From the NCBI GenBank assembly GCA_964503405.1, contig CAZDAH010000006.1, positions 14,223 through 42,756 on the forward strand: a stretch of DNA of 28,534 nucleotides. The letters run 5' to 3'. A program made the translations under genes and the position numbers. Origin of the DNA: an uncultured Ignavibacteria bacterium. Its GTDB lineage: Bacteria; Zixibacteria; MSB-5A5; UBA10806. Below the pieces are notes generated by a model. The model had not been told where the DNA came from. It ran no database searches and worked only from the letters and a program-made list of their open reading frames with translations. This document shows positions 13,847 to 26,390 of the stretch, in pieces; the stretch's first letter is position 1, and each line of letters begins with the position of its first letter.

Positions 13847-13923
13847 TGGTGGGCAATACTGGACTCGAACCAGTGACCTTTCGGATGTGAACCGAACGCT
13901 CTAACCAACTGAGCTAATCGCCC
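13847..13923 (-). tRNA. tRNA-Val(CAC)
   Basis: GGGCGATTAGCTCAGTTGGTTAGAGCG-TTCGG-TT-CAC-AT-CCGAA...GGTTCGAGTCC...GCCCACCA; 77 nt with encoded CCA. Confidence 0.96.
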
Positions 13924-13928
13924 TATCC

Positions 13929-14005
13929 TGGTGGGCCCACCAGGATTCGAACCTGGGACCCACTGATTATGAGTCAGTTGCTCTAACCAGCTGAGCTATG
14001 GGCCC
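13929..14005 (-). tRNA. tRNA with CAU anticodon, most likely tRNA-Ile2 (lysidine type)
   Basis: GGGCCCATAGCTCAG...ACTGA-CT-CAT-AA-TCAGT...GGTTCGAATCC...GGGCCCACCA. The paired 1:72 position excludes initiator tRNA; C4:G69 and C5:G68 are the TilS determinants of Ile2. Confidence 0.9.
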
Positions 14006-14022: not shown

Positions 14023-14051
14023 AAAATAGAGGCACGGAATTTGTATGTCAA
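14023..14051 (-). promoter_or_regulatory. Sigma70-type promoter of the tRNA pair
   Basis: TTGACA (14051-14046), 17 nt, TATTTT (14028-14023), 17 nt upstream of the first tRNA. Confidence 0.7.
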
Positions 14052-14129: not shown

Positions 14130-14681
14130 TCAATTCTGAAGGGCCAGCAGCTTGCGCTTCAGCAGGGTACGGCCGCGGGAGAGACGGGAACGGACTGTAC
14201 CCATCGGGCATCCGAGTTTGGTGGATATGTCCTGGTAGGGCAGACCGCGAAGGTCGGCGAGAATGACCATGCTTCGATAATCTCCGGGAAGGGAATTTAT
14301 CGCTTTTTTGACATGATCGGAGACATAATATTCAAGCAGCTTCTCATCGTCCACCTCGTGCATATCCTGAGCGCCGCCGGATTTGCCCTCGTCGGCGCAA
14401 AGCTCGTGATTGAGCTCCTGGTGTACAGGCAGCTTTTTGATCTTGTGATAGTGATTTATGTAGGTGTTTATCATGATTCTTATCAGCCAGGCAAGGCAAT
14501 TTGTTCCTCGTTGGAATAAGTCGAAATTATTGTAGGCTCTCAGGTAAGTTTCCTGAACGAGATCCTCTGAAAAAACGGGGTCTCGAGTCATTCCCCTGGC
14601 CAGCCCGGCGAGATACTCGATGTGAATTACCGCGAGCGTCTCGAATTCGGTTTTGAGTCTTACTTTAGAGAACCTGACCAT
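14130..14681 (-). CDS. ECF (group 4) RNA polymerase sigma-70 factor
   Basis: Region 2 SEDLVQETYLRAY...AWLIRIMINTYIN; region 4 AINSLP..YR..VIL....GL.YQDI...LGCPMGTVRSRLSRGR; 183 aa. Confidence 0.95.
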   Translation of the reverse strand: MVRFSKVRLKTEFETLAVIHIEYLAGLARGMTRDPVFSEDLVQETYLRAYNNFDLFQRGTNCLAWLIRIMINTYINHYHKIKKLPVHQELNHELCADEGKSGGAQDMHEVDDEKLLEYYVSDHVKKAINSLPGDYRSMVILADLRGLPYQDISTKLGCPMGTVRSRLSRGRTLLKRKLLALQN

Positions 14682-14971
14682 TGCTCTTAACCCCCTGTAA
14701 AAAATTCGTTGTCAATTCCGCGACAGCAATGTGCGCCGAAGCTGCGTTCCGGAGCACTTGTCTCCCGGTTCGGCCCCTCCGAATTATCTTGGCCCCACCC
14801 CCTGCCTTGTCGGGCGGGGGGAGGGCCAGCCCAAAGTAACTGAGGGGAGAGAAGCGAGCTACTGCCATTCATATAGGCAAGTTACATGCCAACTTTTTCG
14901 ATATTGCAACTCATTGTGGTTCAATAAGTTATATTGTGACCCGAAACGATAATCCTCGCGAAGTGTGGGAA

Positions 14972-14980
14972 ATTATAACA
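14972..14980 (-). promoter_or_regulatory. Extended -10 sigma70-type element upstream of the ECF sigma gene
   Basis: TG-T-TATAAT on the minus strand; no recognisable -35. Confidence 0.45.
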
Positions 14981-14981
14981 C

Positions 14982-15009
14982 TTAACGATGCTCTCATTAT
15001 CTTGTTTAA
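14982..15009 (-). promoter_or_regulatory. Candidate ECF-type promoter upstream of the sigma gene
   Basis: TTAAAC-N16-CGTTAA. Confidence 0.4.
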
Positions 15010-15063
15010 ACGTAGTATCTTACGGAAGCAGGAAAAGCGGGGAAAAGCAACAGTTGAGGCTAA

Positions 15064-16839
15064 TCATAACGCTTTGATGACAATCATTGTCAAATCATCC
15101 ATTTCGCGCTCTTGGTGATGAAACGACGTGGTTTTCTTTTCGATATAATCGATAATTTCCCTGGCCGAGAGGCGGGATGACTCGTCGAGGGCTTGTCTGA
15201 GTCGTTCGACTCCAAATTCCTTCCCTTCTTCGTTGAAGACCTCGGTGACGCCGTCGGTATAGAACAGCATCACATCCCCCGGGTGCAGCGTAATCGATTT
15301 TTCCTGATAATGGGAATCGAGAAAGACCCCAAGAGCTACGCCCCCTTCCTTAAGATAGTCTGTATGACCGGAGGCGCGTCGGATAATGGGCTGGTTATGG
15401 CCGGCGTTGGAGTAAGTGAACACTCTTTTCGACGAATCGAGCACGCCGTAGACAGCGGTGACGAACCTGTCCCGCTCGATAGATTCATACAGGAGATTGT
15501 TGACCTTGGATAGAATCGTGCGTATGGCGAAATTGTTTCTGATTTCCGCTTTCAAACTGGCTCTGAATGCCGCCATGATCAGGGCCGCAGGAATTCCCTT
15601 TCCGGAAACGTCGCCGATGGCGATTCCGTATTGATTTTCCACGATCGGGATAAAATCGTAGTAATCGCCTCCCACGGCGGCCGAGGGAATATTGATCCCG
15701 GCAATGTCGATGCCGGCGATGACGGGGTTGCCGGCCGGCAGGAACGTCATTTGAATCCGCCTGGCGATGCTGAGCTCGTGTTCGAAACGTCGGGCGGCTA
15801 TACTCTCCTCGTGCATGCGGGCGCGTTCTATGGAGACGGCGGCCAGGCTGGCGAAACCGCTCATTAAATCCAGATGGTGATTATTATAGGCGTTGGGACT
15901 ATCGCTCTCGACGTTGAATACGCCTATGAGCGTTTCATTCATTTTGATGGGCACGGCCATCTCGGATTTAGTTTGAGAGCGAATTGGAATATAGTCGGTA
16001 TTTGAGGAAACATCGGCTACGATAATCGCTTTGCCCGTCTCGGCTACCCGTCCGCATATCCCCTGTCCTATTTTCAGATGCAGGATGTTCCGATCGCTTT
16101 CCGGAACTCCCCTGGTGGAAACCTGGGCGATGGAATGGCTCCTGGGATCGACCAGGTAGATTATGCCGATTTCGTATTCAACAACCTGCTTTAAGTTATC
16201 CAGAATTTTATCCAGAAGCTCGTCCAACTCGAGGGAGCTGGAAAGAGCCATGCCGGCGTCCTTTAATGATCTCATTTCATTAAGGGCCCTGACAGCTTCT
16301 TCGAGAATCCAGGCGTTGCGCAAAGTGAGGGCTATGCGTTCGGCGACAATCGTCAGCAGATCGAGATCCGGACTGTCGAACTCGGGGAGTTCGCTGTCGC
16401 TGACCGCTTGCACGATTCCCAGAAACTCTCCCCCGGCGTGGAGCGGCGCGCTCAGAATCTCCCGGGGAGACAGCCCCGTGGCTAATTTCAGGGCCGAAGC
16501 GTATTCACTGCCTTGATCTACCCGTTGCACACTGACCGTCTGCCCTCCACGAGATTCCCAACCAGCCACGCTATTTTCGTCGATGGGCGGAAGAGTTCTG
16601 ATATCCTCGGGAGAGCTTGCCGCGGCCGTATAGATATTCAGCGAGAAATCGTGCATATCGACAAGCACCAGGCAGGCGCCGGCGCCGTGGAATCGCCGGA
16701 TCATAATTCCCAGGGCGTTTCTAATGACAGTACGCAGTTCGAGATCTGAGTTGAGCACCCTGAACGATTCGATCAGGATCTTCTCTTTTTCAGTGAACCC
16801 GTTTTCTTCTTTTCTCATGCCGTCCCGATTCAATTTCAT
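15064..16839 (-). CDS. GAF-GAF-PP2C (SpoIIE/RsbU-like) protein phosphatase
   Basis: Two GAF repeats (LSAPL...GIVQAV; EMAVPIK...IGVFNVES), RRIQMTFLP, GGDYYD, IGDVSGKG, YTDGVTE, DDLT. Confidence 0.93.
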   Translation of the reverse strand: MKLNRDGMRKEENGFTEKEKILIESFRVLNSDLELRTVIRNALGIMIRRFHGAGACLVLVDMHDFSLNIYTAAASSPEDIRTLPPIDENSVAGWESRGGQTVSVQRVDQGSEYASALKLATGLSPREILSAPLHAGGEFLGIVQAVSDSELPEFDSPDLDLLTIVAERIALTLRNAWILEEAVRALNEMRSLKDAGMALSSSLELDELLDKILDNLKQVVEYEIGIIYLVDPRSHSIAQVSTRGVPESDRNILHLKIGQGICGRVAETGKAIIVADVSSNTDYIPIRSQTKSEMAVPIKMNETLIGVFNVESDSPNAYNNHHLDLMSGFASLAAVSIERARMHEESIAARRFEHELSIARRIQMTFLPAGNPVIAGIDIAGINIPSAAVGGDYYDFIPIVENQYGIAIGDVSGKGIPAALIMAAFRASLKAEIRNNFAIRTILSKVNNLLYESIERDRFVTAVYGVLDSSKRVFTYSNAGHNQPIIRRASGHTDYLKEGGVALGVFLDSHYQEKSITLHPGDVMLFYTDGVTEVFNEEGKEFGVERLRQALDESSRLSAREIIDYIEKKTTSFHHQEREMDDLTMIVIKAL

Positions 16840-16885
16840 CCGACCAACATCAATACTGACCGCCTGGCTGACTTGACAGACCGCG

Positions 16886-16914
16886 AATATAGGCGCCGTC
16901 TCGGGCTATGTCAA
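16886..16914 (-). promoter_or_regulatory. Near-consensus sigma70 promoter of the phosphatase gene
   Basis: TTGACA (16914-16909), 17 nt, TATATT (16891-16886). Confidence 0.7.
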
Positions 16915-16937
16915 CGCTTTCATATCGGCAAGAAGAT

Positions 16938-18338
16938 TCAACGCTGGAAGAGGGTCATTTTGACTTTGTCTTCCCAGTTGTAGTCTTTTATCTCGTTCTG
17001 CTTCGACGAATGCACGAGTTGGAAGGCGCCGGTGTCCTCGAAATCTACGAATATAAAATAGATTCCGCCCTCGAGCCCGTGGTACCACCATCTCTGCCAA
17101 TTGCGCTCCTCGATCGAGGATTGATTACGTTCGATCTCGGAAGGCTCGCCGTACATTATATAAACTCTGCCCATATCGGTTTGCCATCCTTTAATAACTC
17201 CTCTATACTGGCCGAAATGCTCTTCGCAATACTTGATCCGTCGATAGTGCTCCAGCTTGAATTCGTTTTCCGCGGTTGTCGGATTCGGATCGCGTTTCTG
17301 CCAGAAATCGTTCTGGAAATTGCGTTTCCCTTCGAGGTTCAACGAATCGAAAAGTCTAAGCTCGTCCTGGGTGGCGATGAAGGTAATATCCCCCCTGAAT
17401 TTGGCGGCTTCGTCTTCGCTTTCCAGACGGCCGGATTCGGGAAAGTCCTTCAGGATGGCCTGAAGCATCTCTTGTCTCAGCCTCTCCCTGGATGCCACCA
17501 CGGCGAATCGTTTCTCCGACGATGCCAGATAATCGCCGTCCCTAACCGAGAGCCGAACCGAGTAATAGCCGCGGGCCAGTGTCGCGTATGAGAATCCGGT
17601 CATGATCACCGCCGACCGGCCCGGCTTTCCATAATTCGCTTCCGGGATGGTTTTTACTGTTTGACCGTTGCCGTCGAGGATCTCGATAAGCACCGAGTAG
17701 GAACTGTCGGTCGAAATGTCCAGATTGTAGGCCTCGGCATAGATATAGATCACGTTCTTGTCCTGGGAGAATCGTGCAGATGGATTGGGCAGCACACGGT
17801 AACCGGCTTTGGAGAATTTACCCGACGAATCCGCGGTTATCTCGTAGGCAAGCTGCAGGGAAGAGAGATTCAAATCTTCCGATCCGTACCCGGGGACTGT
17901 CACGGCAAATTCGCATAATCCTCTTTTTTCTCCATTGGCCGCGGAGAGCCTGATATTATAATTCCCCCGCGGGAATATTTCAGTTACCATATCGGATATC
18001 AGGTAATCGCTGTCTTCGAGGACCGACAGCGACTCGATCCGGTTTCCGGCTTTCCAGGCCGCCGAATCGATGATTGCGCCGGTAGTGTCCATCAGCCATA
18101 CCGCAAAGTCGATGATCGCGACGTACCCCGAGGAGTCGGGCGAATAATTCAACTGGGCCCGGGGAATATTGTAAAAGATCTCGACATAAGCGCCGGAGGA
18201 GTCTCCCTCGATACGATAGGTTGCGAAATCGGCCGTTACGCGCAAATCGCCGCTTTCATTCGAGGACGAATCTCCGCCGACAATGACTGCCGCCACGACT
18301 GTTATAACAAATATCGCAGCTCCGGAGGTTTTTCTCAC
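16938..18338 (-). CDS. GWxTD domain-containing exported protein
   Basis: N-terminal hydrophobic signal; C-terminal FWQKRDPNPTT.ENEFKLEHYRR...GWQTDMGRVYIMYGEP...ERNWQRWWY. Confidence 0.9.
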   Translation of the reverse strand: MRKTSGAAIFVITVVAAVIVGGDSSSNESGDLRVTADFATYRIEGDSSGAYVEIFYNIPRAQLNYSPDSSGYVAIIDFAVWLMDTTGAIIDSAAWKAGNRIESLSVLEDSDYLISDMVTEIFPRGNYNIRLSAANGEKRGLCEFAVTVPGYGSEDLNLSSLQLAYEITADSSGKFSKAGYRVLPNPSARFSQDKNVIYIYAEAYNLDISTDSSYSVLIEILDGNGQTVKTIPEANYGKPGRSAVIMTGFSYATLARGYYSVRLSVRDGDYLASSEKRFAVVASRERLRQEMLQAILKDFPESGRLESEDEAAKFRGDITFIATQDELRLFDSLNLEGKRNFQNDFWQKRDPNPTTAENEFKLEHYRRIKYCEEHFGQYRGVIKGWQTDMGRVYIMYGEPSEIERNQSSIEERNWQRWWYHGLEGGIYFIFVDFEDTGAFQLVHSSKQNEIKDYNWEDKVKMTLFQR

Positions 18339-18341
18339 GAT

Positions 18342-19646
18342 TCATCTTCCCTTAGTGATATCACCGTCATACGGATATTGCAGCTCGAAATCGCCGTAAC
18401 CGTTGATATCGACGAAAAGAAATCTCTTTTTCTGTTCATAGTAATACCATAACTGGTACGGTTTGGCATTGGTGTCGAATGGATGCCGTTCGATTTCGTC
18501 GGGGGCGCCGTAGGTGATATAGACCATCCCCATATCCGATTTCCAGCCGTCGCGGCCGAAATGGCCGAAATTCAGATCGGCGTACCGGAGCCGCTTGTAA
18601 TACTCATCGCGCAGCTCATTCTCGGGCGTTCCGGGAGAGGGATCGTTGGCGATCCAGAACGCTATCCAGAATTCCAGCCTTTTTTCGGCCGGAGAGCTTT
18701 TCAAATCGTCCATCTCCTTTTTGGTGGCAATATAGCGAAGCTGTTCCACGGCCGTCTTGAAATCGTTCCTGACTATACCCATGACCGACCATTCGACCAC
18801 GAAAGGCGACTCGGCCGCGAGATCGAGCTCGCCGCCGGGAGAGCCCACGTTGACCGTAATGCTGTAAATGCCGGGAAGCAACGATTCGATATTGAATTCC
18901 TCGAGCCTCGCGGTGACGGCGCCCTTCGACGGGAGCAAAGTCGTATCCGATTTGACGGAAGTTTTATCCAGGTAAATTTCGTAATAAACGAGGTAGTCTT
19001 TATCATAATCAGGCCGGTTATAGATTTCGTAATATATTTTCAACAGGGGGTCGTCGAAGCCGAAGGTTCTGGAGACGGATGGTATCATGACAACGGCGTT
19101 TCGTTCGAAACGGGATTTCTCGTCGGAGCGAGTCGATTCTCGGACGAATTCCAGTCCCGACAAGAATGGTATATTCTTGCCGAAATCTTTCAATTTCATC
19201 TCCTCCCTGGCCGTAAGCTCGTCGCCGGAATGAGTGTCGACAAGCTTGCCGACCAGTTCGTAGTCATCCGGCGATAAGCGGAATTCGAATTTGTCAATGA
19301 TAAAATCTTTCGGGGAAATGGTCATCTCGTAGCTATCCGCGAACAGGTCGCCGTCGCGGGTGATGCCGGTCACCTGCTTCTTTTTCTTGTTGATGACGAT
19401 ATTTATCTCGTAAGACGCCTTGAACTTGTCCCCCCATTTCTGGTAGGACAGGGCGTAGGAGAACGCTTTATAATAGACCTCCACAATCACGCTATCGGAA
19501 AGAGAATCTTTGAAGGGGACAAAATCAATAGCGAATTTGGAGGCGACCAGGCGATCCTCGAATCCCAGGTGATCCTGGGCCGCCGCCGGCAGTCCGATTA
19601 AGATTGCCGCCAGCGTTAACGAAGCTGACTTGAGCATGATCCCCAC
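18342..19646 (-). CDS. GWxTD domain-containing exported protein (paralog)
   Basis: Signal peptide ending AAA-Q; FWIANDPSPGTPENELRDEYYKR...GWKSDMGMVYITYGAPDEIER...PYQLWYY. Start is GTG 19646 or ATG 19637. Confidence 0.9.
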   Translation of the reverse strand: MGIMLKSASLTLAAILIGLPAAAQDHLGFEDRLVASKFAIDFVPFKDSLSDSVIVEVYYKAFSYALSYQKWGDKFKASYEINIVINKKKKQVTGITRDGDLFADSYEMTISPKDFIIDKFEFRLSPDDYELVGKLVDTHSGDELTAREEMKLKDFGKNIPFLSGLEFVRESTRSDEKSRFERNAVVMIPSVSRTFGFDDPLLKIYYEIYNRPDYDKDYLVYYEIYLDKTSVKSDTTLLPSKGAVTARLEEFNIESLLPGIYSITVNVGSPGGELDLAAESPFVVEWSVMGIVRNDFKTAVEQLRYIATKKEMDDLKSSPAEKRLEFWIAFWIANDPSPGTPENELRDEYYKRLRYADLNFGHFGRDGWKSDMGMVYITYGAPDEIERHPFDTNAKPYQLWYYYEQKKRFLFVDINGYGDFELQYPYDGDITKGR

Positions 19647-19707
19647 ACTTTCAATTTAAGACCTACCCCGGAAGCCGAGCAAGTTTTTTCGCCCGCTCCC
19701 GGCTATA

Positions 19708-19736
19708 TTAACGGATTAATTTAAAAAATTGTTTCG
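19708..19736 (-). promoter_or_regulatory. Candidate ECF-type promoter upstream of the GWxTD pair
   Basis: CGAAAC-N17-CGTTAA in the 92 nt intergenic gap. Confidence 0.45.
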
Positions 19737-19738
19737 GG

Positions 19739-20980
19739 CTATTCGTATCTAAGGCACTCTATGGGATCGAGCTTGGCGGCCCGTATGGCCGGATAAATGC
19801 CGAAAACCAGGGCTACTCCCACCGAGAAGAAAAAGGCCGTGATAATCCAGGGAATGGAAATAGCCGCCGGCAAAGGCGTAAGTCCCGCGATCAGCTGGCC
19901 TGCGGCAAGCCCGACGATTATCCCCAGGATTCCGCCAAACCCGGAAAGGGCCATAGCCTCGATTAGAAACTGCCAGAGTATATTGCGTTTTTTGGCACCG
20001 ACCGCTTTCCTGATCCCGATTTCGCGGGTGCGCTCGGTAACGGAGACCAGCATGATGTTCATGACGCCTACTCCCCCGACCAGGAGGCCAATCGACGAAA
20101 TGACGATCATCACCAGCCAGATGGCCTGGGTAACCTGGGTATACATCTCCTGCAGGCTTTCCTGAGTGAAAATGGCGAAATCGTCTGGTTCGTTATAGCG
20201 CAGGCCTCTTTGCCGACGCATGACCTCCTCCACCTGTCCGATGGCGACATCCATCAACTCGGGAGAGACGGCCTTCATGGAAAGCCCAAGCTCTTTCTCC
20301 TCGGGATGCAGCTTATGAAAAGTGCCGTAGGGAATGGCCAGAATGCGGTTCTCGCCGCTTCCCATTATTGTCTGACGTTCCTCGAGAACTCCGATGACCG
20401 TGAATTTATCGTCGTTGAACAGAATGACTTTGTTAATCGGATCGACGTCGGGAAACAGAGTCTCCGCGACCTCGGAACCGATGACCACGACCATGGTTCT
20501 GAACTTCACGTCGGAATCGTCAAAAAACCGGCCCTGGGCTGCGAATGTGTTATTAACTAATTGATAATCGGGCAGCGTGCCGAAGAACATGGGATTGTTG
20601 ACCTCGCGATCCCGGTATTTGGCGATGTTCCCGCCGGGCCGGAAATAGTAGTTTTGCGGCGAAACAGCTTCTATGGCCGGGCACGATTCTTGAATAGCCC
20701 TGGCGTCGTCGAAGGTAATTCCCTTGCGATTTCTTTCCGACGAGCTTCTCGAACCTATCTGGATTCCGGGTTTGTATTTGGAAACGTAGATGACATTCGA
20801 GCCCAGCGACTCGATTTGTTCGGCCATTGAATTATCCAGGCCGGTAATTATCGAAACCACGGCTATAATCGTGAACACGCCGACCATAACTCCCAGGATA
20901 GTCAGAAAAGAGCGCAACTTGTGGGCGCGGAAGGTGGTCATGGCCAGCCGCAGGCTTTCTTTAATTTCGTGAATGAACAA
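19739..20980 (-). CDS. MacB/FtsX-family ABC transporter permease
   Basis: KLRSFLTILGVMVGV, periplasmic core, GVMNIMLVSVTERTREIGIRKAVGA, FGIYPA.RAAKLDPIECLRYE. TTG start. Confidence 0.94.
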   Translation of the reverse strand: MFIHEIKESLRLAMTTFRAHKLRSFLTILGVMVGVFTIIAVVSIITGLDNSMAEQIESLGSNVIYVSKYKPGIQIGSRSSSERNRKGITFDDARAIQESCPAIEAVSPQNYYFRPGGNIAKYRDREVNNPMFFGTLPDYQLVNNTFAAQGRFFDDSDVKFRTMVVVIGSEVAETLFPDVDPINKVILFNDDKFTVIGVLEERQTIMGSGENRILAIPYGTFHKLHPEEKELGLSMKAVSPELMDVAIGQVEEVMRRQRGLRYNEPDDFAIFTQESLQEMYTQVTQAIWLVMIVISSIGLLVGGVGVMNIMLVSVTERTREIGIRKAVGAKKRNILWQFLIEAMALSGFGGILGIIVGLAAGQLIAGLTPLPAAISIPWIITAFFFSVGVALVFGIYPAIRAAKLDPIECLRYE

Positions 20981-21006
20981 GGTTTACTCTCTCCCTCAAC
21001 CCCGTT

Positions 21007-22227
21007 TTACTCGTATCTTAAAGCCTCGATCGGATCGAGGCGGGCCGCCTTGACCGCCGGAAATATGCCGAATATCATGCCCACTCCGGTCGATACCGCC
21101 AGCCCCAGCAAGACCGCCCAGAGTTCTATTGTCGCCGGCAAGGGCGAGGCCGCGCTAACCACTGTGGCAAATATTATTCCCAGAATTATGCCTATAGATC
21201 CGCCGATCGCCGCCAGGGTAACGGCCTCGACCAGGAATTGCCACAGGATATCTCTGCGTCTGGCCCCGATCGCTTTTCTAATCCCGATCTCCCGGGTCCG
21301 TTCTGTGACCGACACGAGCATGATATTCATAATGACGATTCCTCCGACCACAAGCGATATCGACGAAATAAGCATCAGGACGAACCATGCCGCCCGGGTG
21401 AAATTATTGAAAAACTCCATGAATGTAGCGGAGGTCATAATGCCGAAATCGTCCCTTTTGTCATAGGTGAGTTTGCGGCGAGCCCGCAGGATCGTCCTGG
21501 CCTCGTCCTGCGCCTCTTCCATGACCGACATATCCACGGCATTGGCGTAAATTGCTATAGTGCGGCGGCGTCCGAAATATTTCTCGAAAGTGCTCAACGG
21601 TACTACCACCCAATTGTCCTGATTCATGGTCATAAACGAACCCCGGGCCTTGGCCACCCCCACTATTCTGAAATAAAATTTGCCGATCTTAATATTCTGG
21701 CCTATCGGATTGCCGTGCTCTATCAGTTTATCCACCAGATCGGGGCCGGCCATGCAAACCGAGGCTCGATGAATTTCGTCCGTTTCCATCAAAGTGCGTC
21801 CGTAATCGATCTCGATATCCGAGACGTCGAGAAAATTAAAGGTTACTCCCTGAAGCATGACGTCCTCGAGATAATTCGAGCCGTATTTGACACTGGTTTG
21901 GACATGCTGGCTGACACCGCCCACGTTTTCGCAGAGGCTGCAATATCTCGCCACCGCTTTTAAGTCGTCGAGAGTGATCCTCTTTCGTTTCTGGGCCTCG
22001 AACCACTCTTCCTCTGAAGTTATCAGCCCCTCTCTATCTATTATGAAAGTATTCGAGCCCATGGAATTGATCCTGGTGGCGACGTAGTTATTCATGCCGT
22101 TTATTACGGATACTACGGTAATGACGGTTGTCACTCCGATAATAATGCCTATCAGCGTCAGAATCGATCTGAGCTTGTTCGCCCAGATCGATTGAAGGGC
22201 GATCAAGACGCCTTCGATGAACCACAT
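21007..22227 (-). CDS. MacB/FtsX-family ABC transporter permease (paralog)
   Basis: KLRSILTLIGIIIGV, VIMNIMLVSVTERTREIGIRKAIGA, FGIFPA.KAARLDPIEALRYE. Confidence 0.94.
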   Translation of the reverse strand: MWFIEGVLIALQSIWANKLRSILTLIGIIIGVTTVITVVSVINGMNNYVATRINSMGSNTFIIDREGLITSEEEWFEAQKRKRITLDDLKAVARYCSLCENVGGVSQHVQTSVKYGSNYLEDVMLQGVTFNFLDVSDIEIDYGRTLMETDEIHRASVCMAGPDLVDKLIEHGNPIGQNIKIGKFYFRIVGVAKARGSFMTMNQDNWVVVPLSTFEKYFGRRRTIAIYANAVDMSVMEEAQDEARTILRARRKLTYDKRDDFGIMTSATFMEFFNNFTRAAWFVLMLISSISLVVGGIVIMNIMLVSVTERTREIGIRKAIGARRRDILWQFLVEAVTLAAIGGSIGIILGIIFATVVSAASPLPATIELWAVLLGLAVSTGVGMIFGIFPAVKAARLDPIEALRYE

Positions 22228-22238
22228 GACAATCCGCC

Positions 22239-22919
22239 TTATCTGGTCTTTTCGTCTTTTTCGATCTGGCCGTCGCGAATGAAAATTATTCTGTCGGCGT
22301 ATGACGCTATGTCGCGTTCATGCGTGACGATTATGATCGTATTTCCTTCCTTGTGGAGTTTCGACAGCAGTTCCATGATTTCCACACCGGTGGCCGTATC
22401 AAGATTGCCGGTCGGCTCGTCGGCCAATATCAGGGACGGCTTATTCACCAGAGCCCTGGCTATGGCCACTCTCTGTCTCTGTCCCCCGGAAAGCTGGTTC
22501 GGCTTATGAGTCATCCTGTCGGCGAGATCCACCATCGTCAGCGCCTCTTTTGCTTTCCTCAGACGATCTTCCGCGCGCGTACCGTTGTAGATCAACGGCA
22601 ATTCCACGTTATGAAGCGCTGTCGCCCGGGGAAGGAGATTGAAGGTCTGGAAGACAAAGCCGATCTCCTTATTGCGAATATGAGCGAGCTCATCGTCGTT
22701 CATCTTCGATACCTCGCGGCCGTTTAACAGGTATTGCCCTCTCGACGGCGTATCGAGGCAGCCGATCAGATTCATAAGGGTGGATTTGCCGGAACCGGAC
22801 GGCCCCATGATGGCCAGGTATTCCCCTTTGACGACCTGGGTGGTAATACCTCGGAGCGCGTTGACATTCTCGGCGCCGACTTCGTATATCTTCCAGAGAT
22901 CTTCAGTTTGTATCAACAT
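22239..22919 (-). CDS. ABC transporter ATP-binding protein (MacB/LolD/YknY-like)
   Basis: Walker [10 protein letters not shown]-loop GFVFQTFNL, signature [23 protein letters not shown]. Confidence 0.96.
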
Positions 22920-22966
22920 CGAAAAGTTCCTTTGATTGAATTCTCCTCGCCATGGTTTTGAAGATT

Positions 22967-24205
22967 CTAATCGCTTTCCAGGTCTTTATCGGGTCCGAAT
23001 TTCGGGGCTTCCGGTTTGATCATCTCGTCGTGCTTGAGCGTTCTGAGCAGTCTATACGGTCCGCTTATGACGCTATCTCCCTCGGCCACTCCGTCGAGGA
23101 TCTCCACATGCTGCTGGTCCCTGATCCCCATCTTTACGGGGACGAATCTGGATTTTCCCTGGGAAACCAGAAACACACCGTCGATATCTCTTATATCGGC
23201 ATTCTCCGCGGGCCGGTCATCCGCGGCTTCGGCAGAATCGCTCTCGCCTGCGTTTTTCGTTTCCACCCCGGTATTTTCGGGACGCATCACCACCGAACCG
23301 GCGGGAATCTTGATAGCCTCGGTTTTCTCATTGGTGGTAATATCCACCGACGCTGTCATCCCCGGTTTTATGTTGGCCACCCTGTCGAGAATGAGGATCT
23401 TCACCACGAAATTCGTGATCTGGTCGGAGCTGCCGAATCCGGAGGATTTGGGAGAATTTCCGATCTGGACTGCTTTTCCACGGAAGGTCGTATCGGGAAA
23501 GGCGTCGAGTGTGATTTCGGCCTCCTGTTCCAGGTCGACCCTGGCGATATCCGTCTCGTCGACCTCCGTCTCTATCTCCATGGCGGACAGATCGGAGATA
23601 ACCATGATGACAGTGCCGGGGTTATTCATGGTGCCGATAACCACGTTTTCCCCCTTTTCGGAATTCAATTTTGTCACAATTCCGGCCATGGGAGATCTGA
23701 TGGTGCACTTATTCAATTGGTCGAGGGCTCTATCGAGGCTGGCCTGGCCGATCTGCAGCTGGGACTCGGCCTGGTCGAAAGCGTTCCGGGCGATATCGAG
23801 ACTTGCCTGCGACGACAATCCTTTGGCGAACAGTTGTTTTTCGCGCTCAAGATCTATGACTTCCTTTTCACGGGCGGAGACGGCCGACTGTAACGATCCG
23901 CGGGCCTGGGCCACGTCCATGCGACGCGATGTATTGTCGATTTTGACGAGCAGCTGCCCTTCGGTCACCCGCTGGCCCTCCTCGACCGGCAGTTCCTCGA
24001 TACGGCCCATGACGTCGGCCGAAATCTCGACATCGGCCTGAGCTTGGACTTTGCCTGTGGCAGTTACCAGCGATCTGATCTTGCCCCGCCTGGCCAGCTC
24101 CACCGTCACTGTCGTACGCTTCACCTGGTTGCTCTTGAGGGCGAGAACCACTAACACCGCCAAAACGACACCCGCTCCGATAATCAATAGCCACTTCTTT
24201 TTCAT
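22967..24205 (-). CDS. Periplasmic membrane fusion (adaptor) protein, MacA/YknX-like
   Basis: N-terminal membrane anchor, lipoyl halves ([23 protein letters not shown]), coiled-coil hairpin, VDETDI, IKPGMTA. Confidence 0.93.
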
Positions 24206-24220
24206 TATTTCATCTCCCGC

Positions 24221-25528
24221 CTATCTCCCCAGCGTTTTTTCCAGTTTAGAGACAGCCAGGTAATAATCGAAGATGGCCTCTACCCTGTTAGTCTGGGCTT
24301 CCTTAAGCGACACTTCGGCGTCGAGCACCTCCAGAATAGTCGCGGCCCCGAGATCATATTTTTCTTTGACCAGGTTCAAGTCCTCCTGGGCCGCAGCCAC
24401 CGACTCATCAGCCAGGTTTTTGGCTTCGCTCGACTGCTCGATATCCAAAAACGCCTCTTTCACCTCCAGGGCGACTTTATTCTCGGTGTCTTTCAGCGCC
24501 CGCTTGTATGTATCGACGTTTTTCCTGGCGGCAAGCAGAGTAGCATAATCCGAGGCCCCGTTGAATATATTGAAACTCAGGCTGGCGTAAATATAGGAGC
24601 TGGCGTCAGATCTTTCGAAGCGGGTCAGATTGCTTAGAGTATCGACGGTGGTGCCGTGCCTCAGCCCGACCGAAAGCGAGGGCAGAAAATTGGCGTAGGC
24701 CATCAGTTTCTGGTCCCTGGCGCTGTAGAAATCGAAACGAGCCTTGCGATAGTCGGGATTGGAGGCGATTGCCTCGCCCAGGGCCTCATTGTAACCGATA
24801 TCGACGATCGTCTCGCCGAGATCCTCTTCGACTTCGATGTCCTTGTTGACATCCACACCCATGACATACGCAAGGTTGGCCTTGGCCAGCTTGTAAGCGT
24901 TGGTCTTGGCCACCAAATCAAGCTTATCGCTTCCGTATTGGACTTTGGCTTTCAGGACGTCGGACATGGACGCCGAGCCGAGATCGAACCGGCTCTGCGT
25001 GACCCTCATCCTTTCCTCGCCTCTTTTGACGGCGTCTTCGGATACGTCCAAAAGCATCCTGGCCTTAATGAGGTTAAAGAAGCTCTCTTTAACGTTGAGA
25101 ATCAAAGTCGATTTGGCGCCGATAAATCCGTAAAGCGAAGATCCGCGATCATGGTATTTTTTCTTTATGTCGGCGTAATTGAAAAGCCCCAGGCCGCCAT
25201 ACGACTGGCTGAAGTTCAACGATCCGGAGAATGTATTGGATTTAATTCCGCCGGATAACTGTCGTCCGGTTCCCGGTTCGGAAAACGAATACCCCGACCA
25301 GCTTTGCGAGGCTTGCGAGGAGATGGAGATCGACGGCAGCAGATCGCCCCAGGCTGTATACACTTCGCCCCGGGCGGCGTCGTAACTATTCCTGGCCGCC
25401 ACTACGCCATAATTATTTATCAAGGCCGTCTCGATGCAATCATCGAGAGAATACGTCTCCGCGTGAAGGGAGATAATACTCAGTATCTGAATTAACATTA
25501 GGATCGTTAACGGTAATCCTCGCCTCAT
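24221..25528 (-). CDS. TolC-family outer membrane channel
   Basis: Signal peptide, two OEP repeats (DLLPSISIS; NFLPSLSV), YDLGAATILEVLDAE. Confidence 0.93.
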   Translation of the reverse strand: MRRGLPLTILMLIQILSIISLHAETYSLDDCIETALINNYGVVAARNSYDAARGEVYTAWGDLLPSISISSQASQSWSGYSFSEPGTGRQLSGGIKSNTFSGSLNFSQSYGGLGLFNYADIKKKYHDRGSSLYGFIGAKSTLILNVKESFFNLIKARMLLDVSEDAVKRGEERMRVTQSRFDLGSASMSDVLKAKVQYGSDKLDLVAKTNAYKLAKANLAYVMGVDVNKDIEVEEDLGETIVDIGYNEALGEAIASNPDYRKARFDFYSARDQKLMAYANFLPSLSVGLRHGTTVDTLSNLTRFERSDASSYIYASLSFNIFNGASDYATLLAARKNVDTYKRALKDTENKVALEVKEAFLDIEQSSEAKNLADESVAAAQEDLNLVKEKYDLGAATILEVLDAEVSLKEAQTNRVEAIFDYYLAVSKLEKTLGR

Positions 25529-25545
25529 GCGTTTACTCCTTCTTT

Positions 25546-26286
25546 CTACATTCCGAACTGGCTGAACACGCCGGAAAGGGCCACGCTCAGGGCGATCCAG
25601 ATGGCCCAGAGAACGCCCACGGCGGTGAGGGCTTTTGATTTGCTGAATTTATATATATAACCGAATCCCGCGGCGAAAACCGCCAGGTACCAGATTGTAA
25701 AAAAATCAAACTTGGAAAGGAAAGTATGAAGCTTAGTTCCCACGGAGTCACCGGACAGCAGCAACGCCGGGGACAACGATATTTCCATGCTTCCCTTGGC
25801 CAGGATCAGGGCTGTCGTAACAATAACTCCGATCATGCTTATGCAACTTGACCAGGAAACCACTGCCAGAACTTTCTTATATGTCGAATCCCCGCCGAGC
25901 ATGACTGTGCCCACCAGGTAGAATATACCCGCGAGTATGAGCATTACAAGGGGCACGAAGATGATCTGACCGATCAGAGCGAATCCTCTTTGCATACCGG
26001 CCCTTTCGGTCATTTGCGTTTCGATAACCTGCATCTGTTCCGGCGGGATATTTGGATTGCTCTTGAGCCTCTCCAACTGCGAGTCCATTATAATCGGAAA
26101 TGAGATTTGCGTGGTGACAGCGATTAGAATCACCAGGATTATCAAGGGAGCTATCCACGTTGGTTTTTGATTCAATTCCTGAAACGTGCGCAGAGGATCG
26201 GCAAAAATATTAACCAGTTTTCCGCCGAACCCGAGAGCCGGCGCGGAGACCTCGCTGGAAACCGCCGCCTTAAATCCGCTTTCCAT
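25546..26286 (-). CDS. Yip1-domain membrane protein (YknW-like)
   Basis: IFADP.RTF..L..KPTW..PL, several TM segments, FDFFTIW..AV.A.G. ATG 26286 has AGGAG 5 nt upstream (preferred over GTG 26292). Confidence 0.82.
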   Translation of the reverse strand: MESGFKAAVSSEVSAPALGFGGKLVNIFADPLRTFQELNQKPTWIAPLIILVILIAVTTQISFPIIMDSQLERLKSNPNIPPEQMQVIETQMTERAGMQRGFALIGQIIFVPLVMLILAGIFYLVGTVMLGGDSTYKKVLAVVSWSSCISMIGVIVTTALILAKGSMEISLSPALLLSGDSVGTKLHTFLSKFDFFTIWYLAVFAAGFGYIYKFSKSKALTAVGVLWAIWIALSVALSGVFSQFGM

Positions 26287-26317
26287 TTCCACTCCTTTTC
26301 CTGTCTGCTATTAATGA

Positions 26318-26345
26318 TAGACGAACGATTCTATTAAATGTTTCA
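26318..26345 (-). promoter_or_regulatory. ECF-type promoter of the Yip1-TolC-ABC operon
   Basis: TGAAAC-N16-CGTCTA, closely matching the B. subtilis SigW/SigM-type consensus; 31 nt upstream of the ATG. Confidence 0.7.
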
Positions 26346-26390
26346 AATCCGTCCTCAAAATGTATACACTCGGCGCGACGGGATATTCAA

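Follow-up and report, generated by a model that had tools for sequence, protein, structure and literature searches.

The stretch of DNA analysed here, referred to as the window, comprises 28,534 nucleotides of a contig from an uncultured bacterium, with Zixibacteria metagenome-assembled genomes as its closest public relatives. On its minus strand lie a six-gene exporter operon, a pair of genes for GWxTD-domain proteins, a gene for a GAF-GAF-PP2C phosphatase and a gene for a sigma factor of the extracytoplasmic function (ECF) type. The original prediction had combined the exporter, the GWxTD pair and the sigma gene into a single envelope-stress module, with the same ECF-type promoter motif ahead of the exporter (site 1), the GWxTD pair (site 2) and the sigma gene (site 3). 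The genes and the promoter elements in question are listed here.

26318-26345, minus strand: site 1, putative ECF-type promoter (-35 TGAAAC at 26345-26340, N16, -10 CGTCTA at 26323-26318)
19739-26292, minus strand: six-gene exporter operon, assigned from Pfam hits and the gene order in about 35 loci
25546-26292, minus strand: yip1/yknW-like membrane protein gene (Pfam), probable ATG at 26286
24221-25528, minus strand: tolC-like outer membrane factor gene (Pfam)
22967-24205, minus strand: YknX/MacA-like (HlyD_D23) membrane fusion protein gene (Pfam)
22239-22919, minus strand: ATP-binding cassette (ABC) ATPase gene (ABC_tran, Pfam)
21007-22227 and 19739-20980, minus strand: two MacB/FtsX permease genes (MacB_PCD and FtsX, Pfam)
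19708-19736, minus strand: site 2, ECF-like internal promoter candidate CGAAAC-N17-CGTTAA with the core GAAAC-N18-GTT, 3 nt past the permease stop codon
19654-19682, minus strand: TTGCTC-N17-TTAAAT, sigma-70-like, located after site 2 and before the GWxTD1 start, a rival or additional GWxTD promoter
18342-19646, minus strand: GWxTD1 (PF20094, TIGR04514), probable ATG at 19637
16938-18338, minus strand: GWxTD2 (PF20094, TIGR04514)
16886-16914, minus strand: TTGACA-N17-TATATT, putative sigma-70 promoter upstream of the GAF-GAF-PP2C gene, agreeing with 11 of the 12 consensus positions
15064-16839, minus strand: GAF-GAF-PP2C (SpoIIE-type) phosphatase gene (Pfam), the conserved 5' partner of the sigma gene
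14982-15009, minus strand: site 3, TTAAAC-N16-CGTTAA, about 300 nt 5' of the sigma start codon (14681)
14877-14891, minus strand: sigma-54-type promoter TGGCAT-N5 (GTAAC)-TTGC, 5' of the sigma gene
14791-14862, minus strand: conserved RNA leader with a CU-rich 5' segment GTAGCTCGCTTCTCTCCCCTCAGTTACTTTGGG (14862-14830) and a GC-rich hairpin (14827-14791)
14130-14681, minus strand: gene for a SigH-like ECF sigma factor of 183 amino acids (Sigma70_r2 and r4_2 domains)

For comparison, 80 loci with 10-kb flanks were fetched via an alignment of GWxTD1 homologues; the two nearest relatives, L245 and L246, were fetched later. The order yip1-tolC-fusion protein-ABC ATPase-permease-permease-GWxTD-GWxTD was kept in about 35 Zixibacteria loci (L001-L065), with GWxTD1 identities down to 30%, and the GWxTD pair was always located 3' of the exporter. 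The PP2C and sigma genes followed the exporter-GWxTD block in the closest clade only. The exporter neighbourhood was absent from the Bacteroidota/Ignavibacteria loci with GWxTD homologues (L057-L080).

All three motifs were read back exactly at the predicted minus-strand positions and were found to be intergenic. Each has an AAC-type -35 and a CGT-type -10 element at 16-17 nt. A position weight matrix (PWM) was trained on the orthologous instances of site 1 with the window excluded. Site 1 then scored 22.6 bits, the highest value among about 114,000 positions; the 9.5 bits of site 3 gave it rank 5 and the 8.3 bits of site 2 gave it rank 8. Since the scores of sites 2 and 3 were matched by positions within coding sequence, the sequence statistics by themselves validate site 1 only. 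When the orthologous regions were compared, the two blocks and their spacing were kept at sites 1 and 2 while the spacer drifted; site 3 was kept in none of 12 loci. The SigW-type extended -35 element TGAAACnTTT was present in site 1 and not in site 2 (CGAAACAATT) or site 3 (TTAAACAAGA). We favour, with a probability of roughly 0.62, a reading in which the locus is made of several separate transcription units rather than of one module centred on the sigma gene.

In 29 of the 34 Yip1-bearing loci, TGAAAC-N16-CGT(C/T) was found at a distance of 17-41 nt 5' of the yip1 start, in 23 distinct sequences with diverged spacers, and was retained at Yip1 identities down to about 24%. The upstream sequence of L030 was too short, L027 and L059 had the motif before tolC, and L050 and L052 were without it. 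In an unbiased dyad search, GAAAC-16-CGT was the top dyad (26/32 regions; at most 5 after shuffling). Strict matches numbered 38 in the 1.3 Mb of sequence from related loci; about 28 of them were at the yip1 promoter, and the others corresponded roughly to the number expected by chance and were mostly in coding DNA. Two extra strict matches, in L042 and L045, were rejected as they were within coding sequence running off the locus end. The extended -35 of the window, TGAAACATTT, is identical to the SigW consensus TGAAACnTTT of Bacillus subtilis (PMC6713349), and most orthologues read TGAAAC(T/A)TTT. Transcription would start near 26311, about 25 nt 5' of the ATG at 26286, and no sigma-70-like promoter was called at the position of site 1. 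These observations argue that site 1, which had been singled out as the strong one of the three, is a genuine ECF-type promoter conserved phylum-wide in Zixibacteria.

Two further features were seen around this promoter. About 20 nt 5' of the -35 element the window has a GTGTATACA box (26361-26369, minus strand), and the alignment showed GTGTATAYA or GGTATATAA in the window and in L001, L003, L006-L009 and L051, all of the close clade. The box may represent a sigma-70 element resembling an extended -10, or an operator bound by a regulator. In one clade a sigma-70-like TTGACA-N17 promoter was observed 5' of yip1 (L027 and L059) and an ECF-type motif was located between yip1 and tolC (L026, L027 and L059), followed by about 180 nt of leader, as if the promoter had been relocated inside the operon.

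The proteins encoded downstream of site 1 resemble a known SigW-controlled exporter. The first gene product matched Pfam Yip1 with 65.7 bits, above the cutoff, and scored 89.5 bits with the NCBIfam family YknW_fam, short of its cutoff of 110. In L245 and L246 the orthologous fusion protein was matched by the Beta-barrel_YknX and YknX_C domains. The operon encodes a fusion protein of the YknX type and a stand-alone ABC ATPase, together with a MacB-like permease that carries a periplasmic core domain. YknW is a Yip1-family protein (PMC4887032), and yknWXYZ is a core SigW operon of B. subtilis (PMC3498285) that encodes a four-component SDP-resistance exporter. Both operons begin with a Yip1/YknW-like gene and continue with a YknX/MacA-type protein, an ABC ATPase and a MacB-type permease (PMC4887032), and both have an ECF promoter ahead with the extended -35 of the SigW consensus (PMC6713349), so the parallel to yknWXYZ drawn in the original prediction held (PMC6713349, PMC3498285). 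In contrast to yknWXYZ, the operon of the window represents a diderm form of the system, with two permease genes and a TolC-like outer membrane factor, and neither a SigW orthologue nor an RsiW-type anti-sigma factor is encoded nearby. The -10 element of SigW promoters is CGTA, whereas the operon described here has CGTC/CGTT. With the Gram-negative MacAB-TolC pump the operon shares the MacB-type permease (MacB_PCD and FtsX), the ABC ATPase, the HlyD/MacA adaptor and TolC, but it differs by the separate ATPase polypeptide, the two permease paralogues, the additional Yip1/YknW component and the ECF-type promoter.

Which sigma factor would read sites 1 and 2 was addressed by comparing promoter sequences of candidate regulators. 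The matches listed by a profile scan with the sigma alignment were 38-47% identical homologues from other phyla, with no Zixibacteria orthologue among them. Among these matches listed, the homologues of the neighbouring sigma had GGAA[CT]-N18-GTT 5' of their own genes. Site 2 has the same 18-nt distance from AAC to GTT, and site 1 has 17 nt with TGAAAC. In its recognition helix, GTVRSRLSRGR, the neighbouring sigma keeps the base-contacting R, S and R of SigW and sigma-E, which read G(A/G)AAC in these two proteins (PMC6713349). The helix appears compatible with GAAAC and does not discriminate between the candidate sigma factors. A second type of ECF factor was encountered as a sigma/zf-HC2 anti-sigma pair, convergent to the GWxTD pair in L033 (2803-4687) and L247 (1563-3438), two loci of another Zixibacteria clade. 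Its own promoters have TGCAAC(A/C)TTT-N13-GTCTAA, which corresponds to TGCAAC-N17-GTCTAA. In both loci, divergent TGCAAC-N17-GTCT promoters for the sigma operon and for a DUF6249 gene were seen. The neighbouring sigma and the TGCAAC-type ECF/anti-sigma pair are equally good candidates for the cognate factor. Nothing linked sites 1 and 2 specifically to the adjacent gene, as the earlier caution that the cognate sigma may be a different one had anticipated.

It is possible that sites 1 and 2 are true ECF promoters read by another ECF factor encoded elsewhere, for example one of the L033/L247 type. Promoters of this type share with site 1 (TGAAACATTT...CGTCTA) the AAC(A/C)TTT sequence, the 17-nt distance from AAC to GTC and GTCTAA, that is, the spacing and both extended elements. 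The pair includes a classical anti-sigma gene and is convergent to the exporter-GWxTD cluster in its two loci, and the exporter promoters of L043 and L054 have TGCAAC. However, the third base of the -35 element differs consistently, with TGCAAC in 19 of 21 promoters of the second ECF type (among the matches listed) against TGAAAC in about 26 of the 29 exporter promoters. Moreover, a protein search with the L033-type sigma gave no match on a contig assignable to the window's clade, and the adjacency is confined to one clade. A separately encoded ECF factor of this kind is the best of the alternatives, yet we consider it rather unlikely.

The GWxTD pair is separated from the exporter by a gap of 92 nt that contains site 2. 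The GAAAC-18-GTT dyad was present in 10/10 regions of the close clade (at most 3 after shuffling), and GAAAC-N18-GTT was also found in L245 and L246, which makes 12/12 loci of this clade. GAAAC was at most a dozen bases from the permease stop codon and GTT(A/T)(A/T) followed exactly 18 nt on, while the spacer sequence varied. On the gene strand, GAAAC-N17/18-GT[TC] recurred across the orthologues only before yip1 (spacing 17) and GWxTD1 (spacing 18). The element was not seen in the more distant Zixibacteria clades. Earlier, site 2 had been described as an ECF promoter that could be due to chance: a clade-conserved ECF-like element was indeed found, which argues against chance, but the cytosine of CGT was not conserved and the distant clades use a sigma-70-like promoter.

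The sigma-70-like sequence downstream of site 2 was conserved as well. Its cTTGC and TAAATT columns were kept in the close clade as TTGC-N17/18-TAAATT. The distant clades had TTGCaA-N17-TATcCT at the same junction, GTTGC-19-TAT was the top dyad across 77 regions, and at least in L013 the sigma-70-like junction promoter was preceded by a clear terminator. Because the distant clades carry a sigma-70-like promoter, the GWxTD pair would generally be its own transcription unit, with an ECF-like element in the window's clade only. The conserved CTTGC 3' of site 2 was also inspected by eye as the -12 of a sigma-54 promoter and was rejected, as no correctly spaced GG was present in the window, L001 or L051. 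In the window's clade, we suggest, the GWxTD pair is preceded by a conserved ECF-like element of its own, with weaker support than at site 1.

Alternatively, site 2 might not be a promoter at all. The GWxTD genes would then be transcribed by read-through from site 1, from TTGC-N17-TTAAAT or from both, and GAAAC...GTT would act at the operon junction as an RNA element or as a binding site for a protein. The low PWM score and the unconserved cytosine fit with this, as do the short gap, in which no terminator was called, the conserved TTGC/TAAATT and the sigma-70-like promoters at this position in other clades. However, the half-sites and their exact 18-nt spacing were kept in 12/12 loci while the spacer diverged, which is the signature of a two-block promoter, and we regard a non-promoter element as unlikely.

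The GWxTD1 and GWxTD2 proteins both have N-terminal signal or anchor sequences. In the AlphaFold (AF2) model of GWxTD1, with a mean predicted local distance difference test (pLDDT) score of 77, a signal peptide is followed by two confident beta-sandwich domains and a helical C-terminal GWxTD region of low confidence. A fold search returned generic tandem Ig-like/beta-sandwich matches with template modelling (TM) scores of about 0.2. Because these matches were generic, no function was assigned to GWxTD1 from its fold. The GWxTD domain was not mentioned in the literature searched, and the invariant position behind the exporter is the sole functional lead for these proteins.

The promoter of the sigma gene was then examined in the orthologous gaps between the PP2C and sigma genes. 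AAC-N16/17-CGT was observed at the equivalent place in none of the 12 gaps (L003-L009, L051, L245, L246, L161 and L162), and even L245, whose sigma is 89% identical to that of the window, was without site 3. Although site 3 is intergenic and upstream of the sigma gene, it does not directly precede it, with about 300 nt to the start codon. Since site 3 is present in the window but not conserved, and the sigma gene carries a sigma-54 promoter instead, it is most likely a chance match.

The sigma-54-type element was found in all loci. (T/C)GGCA(C/T)-N5-TTG(C/A/T) was present in 13/13 of them at a fixed distance of 34-39 nt 5' of the leader core. The window's element at 14891-14877 has its GG and GC one helical turn apart, as in the TGGCAC-N5-TTGC form. 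As a further candidate, TTGACAAC...GGGGTTAA just 5' of the sigma ATG was considered and rejected, its spacing being 16, 19 and 14 nt in the window, L245 and L246, respectively. An inverted repeat, AGTGT-N11-ACACT (14962-14982, minus strand), abuts the '-10' of site 3 and is located about 90 nt 5' of the sigma-54 promoter. In most orthologous loci a TGTTA-type box or a palindrome was found about 90 nt 5' of the sigma-54 GG. The repeat is possibly a site for an enhancer-binding protein.

Between the sigma-54 promoter and the sigma gene lies the conserved leader. Its CU-rich segment of about 30 nt, GTAGTTTGCTTCTCTCCCCTCAGTTACTT(T)GGG, was nearly invariant in 13/13 loci, even where the sigma was 47% identical, and the leader core was identical in L003-L009, L051, L161 and L162. 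The GC-rich hairpin showed compensatory changes at 3 of 8 pairs. An Rfam search with the leader found no family match. When the 185-nt leader of the window was folded, the CU-rich segment paired with the ribosome-binding site of the sigma gene; the folding energy was unexceptional (z = -1.3). The leader could be a translational leader of the anti-Shine-Dalgarno type or a small RNA. Taken together, the sigma-54 promoter and leader in 13/13 loci and the absence of site 3 at 89% sigma identity argue against the proposed autoregulation, and the sigma gene is predicted to be read from the sigma-54 promoter.

A similar arrangement is known from Pseudomonas syringae, where the ECF sigma gene hrpL is sigma-54-dependent and activated by HrpR/HrpS. 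The likeness to a sigma-54-driven ECF sigma of the hrpL type consists of a sigma without an anti-sigma factor, a canonical -24/-12 promoter and a palindrome about 90 nt 5' of it. In contrast to hrpL, the window has no gene for an enhancer-binding protein, and its promoter is followed by the CU-rich leader and the hairpin. Among homologues of the sigma from Thermoanaerobaculia (L100, L115, L127, L137 and L146), a sigma-54-like TTGGCAC-N5-GTGCG was observed 5' of the SigH-like genes. Within this ECF subfamily, control by sigma-54 may therefore reach beyond Zixibacteria.

The sigma protein itself has its best solved relative in SigH of Mycobacterium tuberculosis (PDB 5zx2, E = 2.6e-30). Its top NCBIfam match was TIGR02947 with 129.9 bits, below the cutoff of 251.55. 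The actinobacterial SigH/SigR proteins (ECF12) are its closest characterised relatives, but the window's sigma is below the family cutoff, has no adjacent ZAS anti-sigma (RsrA/RshA), is apparently sigma-54-driven with a leader instead of autoregulated, and is paired with a GAF-PP2C gene. The orthologues of the clade are 67-91% identical. No anti-sigma gene was found beside the sigma gene, which has tRNA genes on its 3' side and no conserved open reading frame in the 382-nt gap on its 5' side; none was found beside it in the distant loci L161 and L162 either.

The partner of the sigma gene is the GAF-GAF-PP2C gene, whose predicted sigma-70 promoter is kept as TTGACT-N17-TATATT in L001. The two genes remained adjacent in L161-L164, distant loci with a 47-51% identical sigma and without the exporter close by. 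In two distant loci the pair, with the same sigma-54 promoter and leader, adjoins an ABC-2 transporter and not the exporter. Because the PP2C gene, the sigma-54 promoter, the leader and the sigma gene are kept together away from the exporter, they form the conserved unit, and their location beside the exporter-GWxTD block appears to be a clade-specific juxtaposition. The conserved pair hints at a phosphatase-linked control of the sigma across Zixibacteria. The idea of one clustered module did not withstand these comparisons: the exporter-GWxTD promoter was kept without an adjacent sigma gene, and the PP2C-sigma pair adjoins unrelated genes elsewhere.

It is improbable that the adjacent SigH-like sigma is cognate to all three sites and autoregulated via site 3, with the exporter and the GWxTD pair in its local envelope-stress regulon. 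Such a regulon would explain the three same-strand intergenic matches, where 0.18 were expected, and the sigma gene does adjoin the cluster in the window's clade. The GGAA[CT]-N18-GTT promoters of its relatives agree with the AAC-N18-GTT of site 2, which was conserved only where the sigma is adjacent, and the retained R, S and R contacts of GTVRSRLSRGR are consistent with it (PMC6713349). Against this, site 3 was missing in 12/12 orthologous regions including the relative with the 89% identical sigma, a sigma-54 promoter is conserved ahead of the sigma gene, site 1 was kept in clades without an adjacent sigma, the PP2C-sigma pair was found without the exporter, and the family-typical -35 GGAAC/T at 18 nt differs from TGAAAC at 17 nt in site 1.

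That AT-rich intergenic DNA produced all three motifs by chance is scarcely credible: over the whole window AAAC-N16/17-CGT was not enriched (7 observed, 5.8 expected) and sites 2 and 3 scored like coding-sequence matches, but the intergenic DNA (1728 nt, gene strand) had 3 matches against 0.18 expected (P ~0.0014), and site 1 was conserved phylum-wide and site 2 clade-wide with diverged spacers.

With separate transcription units, the locus would work as follows. The SigW-like ECF-type promoter TGAAACATTT-N12-CGTCTA (26345-26318) would drive yip1-tolC-fusion protein-ABC ATPase-permease-permease. A group-IV sigma factor, released under envelope or toxic-peptide stress, would read the -35 AAC and the -10 (C)GT and turn the pump on; the promoter class follows from the sequence and its phylum-wide conservation, and inducibility by such stress is inferred. 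In the window's clade, GAAAC-N18-GTTAA (19736-19708) followed by the sigma-70-like TTGC-N17-TTAAAT would serve the GWxTD pair, probably with a stress-boosted expression on top of a basal one. The SigH-like sigma gene would be transcribed from the sigma-54 promoter, with the upstream palindrome and the structured leader. Candidate readers of sites 1 and 2 are this neighbouring sigma and the sigma of a Zixibacteria ECF/anti-sigma pair with TGCAAC-N17-GTCTAA promoters.

Several points weigh against this arrangement. A third intergenic match is improbable by composition (about 0.18 expected), and site 3 possibly has a function specific to the lineage of the window. Site 2 has a PWM score of just 8.3 bits and lacks a conserved cytosine in its CGT, and with the sigma-70-like element just downstream it is perhaps not a promoter. 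Finally, the loci are from metagenome-assembled genomes, many of them related, so the locus counts are not fully independent.

The separate units might still be connected in a three-tier cascade, conserved in Zixibacteria. An enhancer-binding protein and sigma-54 would activate the orphan SigH-like sigma, whose leader could mask the ribosome-binding site and whose partner is the GAF-PP2C protein. The sigma would in turn activate the YknW-type exporter, joined in this clade by the uncharacterised GWxTD proteins. We put this forward as a speculative and quite doubtful scheme. If true, it would provide the first regulatory and functional context for the GWxTD family.

With this analysis an uncultured phylum gains a firmly supported stress promoter and a defined map of transcription units. 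The combination of a SigW-like promoter and a YknW-type exporter is familiar from Bacillus and turns up again here in a distant lineage of diderms. The GWxTD proteins are tied to a MacB/TolC-type exporter by the phylum-wide synteny and by a similar promoter type in one clade, which is a lead for their function. Correcting the tempting autoregulation reading exposed a sigma-54 promoter and an unannotated, nearly invariant RNA leader. The sigma-54-driven ECF sigma with its leader and the exporter-GWxTD synteny may be more interesting than the promoter trio.

The remaining genes of the window surround these units, and all genes between 28465 and 11480 are on the minus strand. A fragment of an H+-pyrophosphatase gene and a gene for a 211-amino-acid protein of unknown function lie 5' of the yip1-like gene on this strand. 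Directly 3' of the sigma gene are tRNA-Met and tRNA-Val (13847-14005), and these are followed on the minus strand by the genes for a CdsZ-like zinc-ribbon protein and IMP dehydrogenase; housekeeping genes fill the left third of the window. Directly 5' of the two tRNA genes a sigma-70-like promoter, TTGACA-N17-TATTTT (14023-14051, minus strand), was observed.

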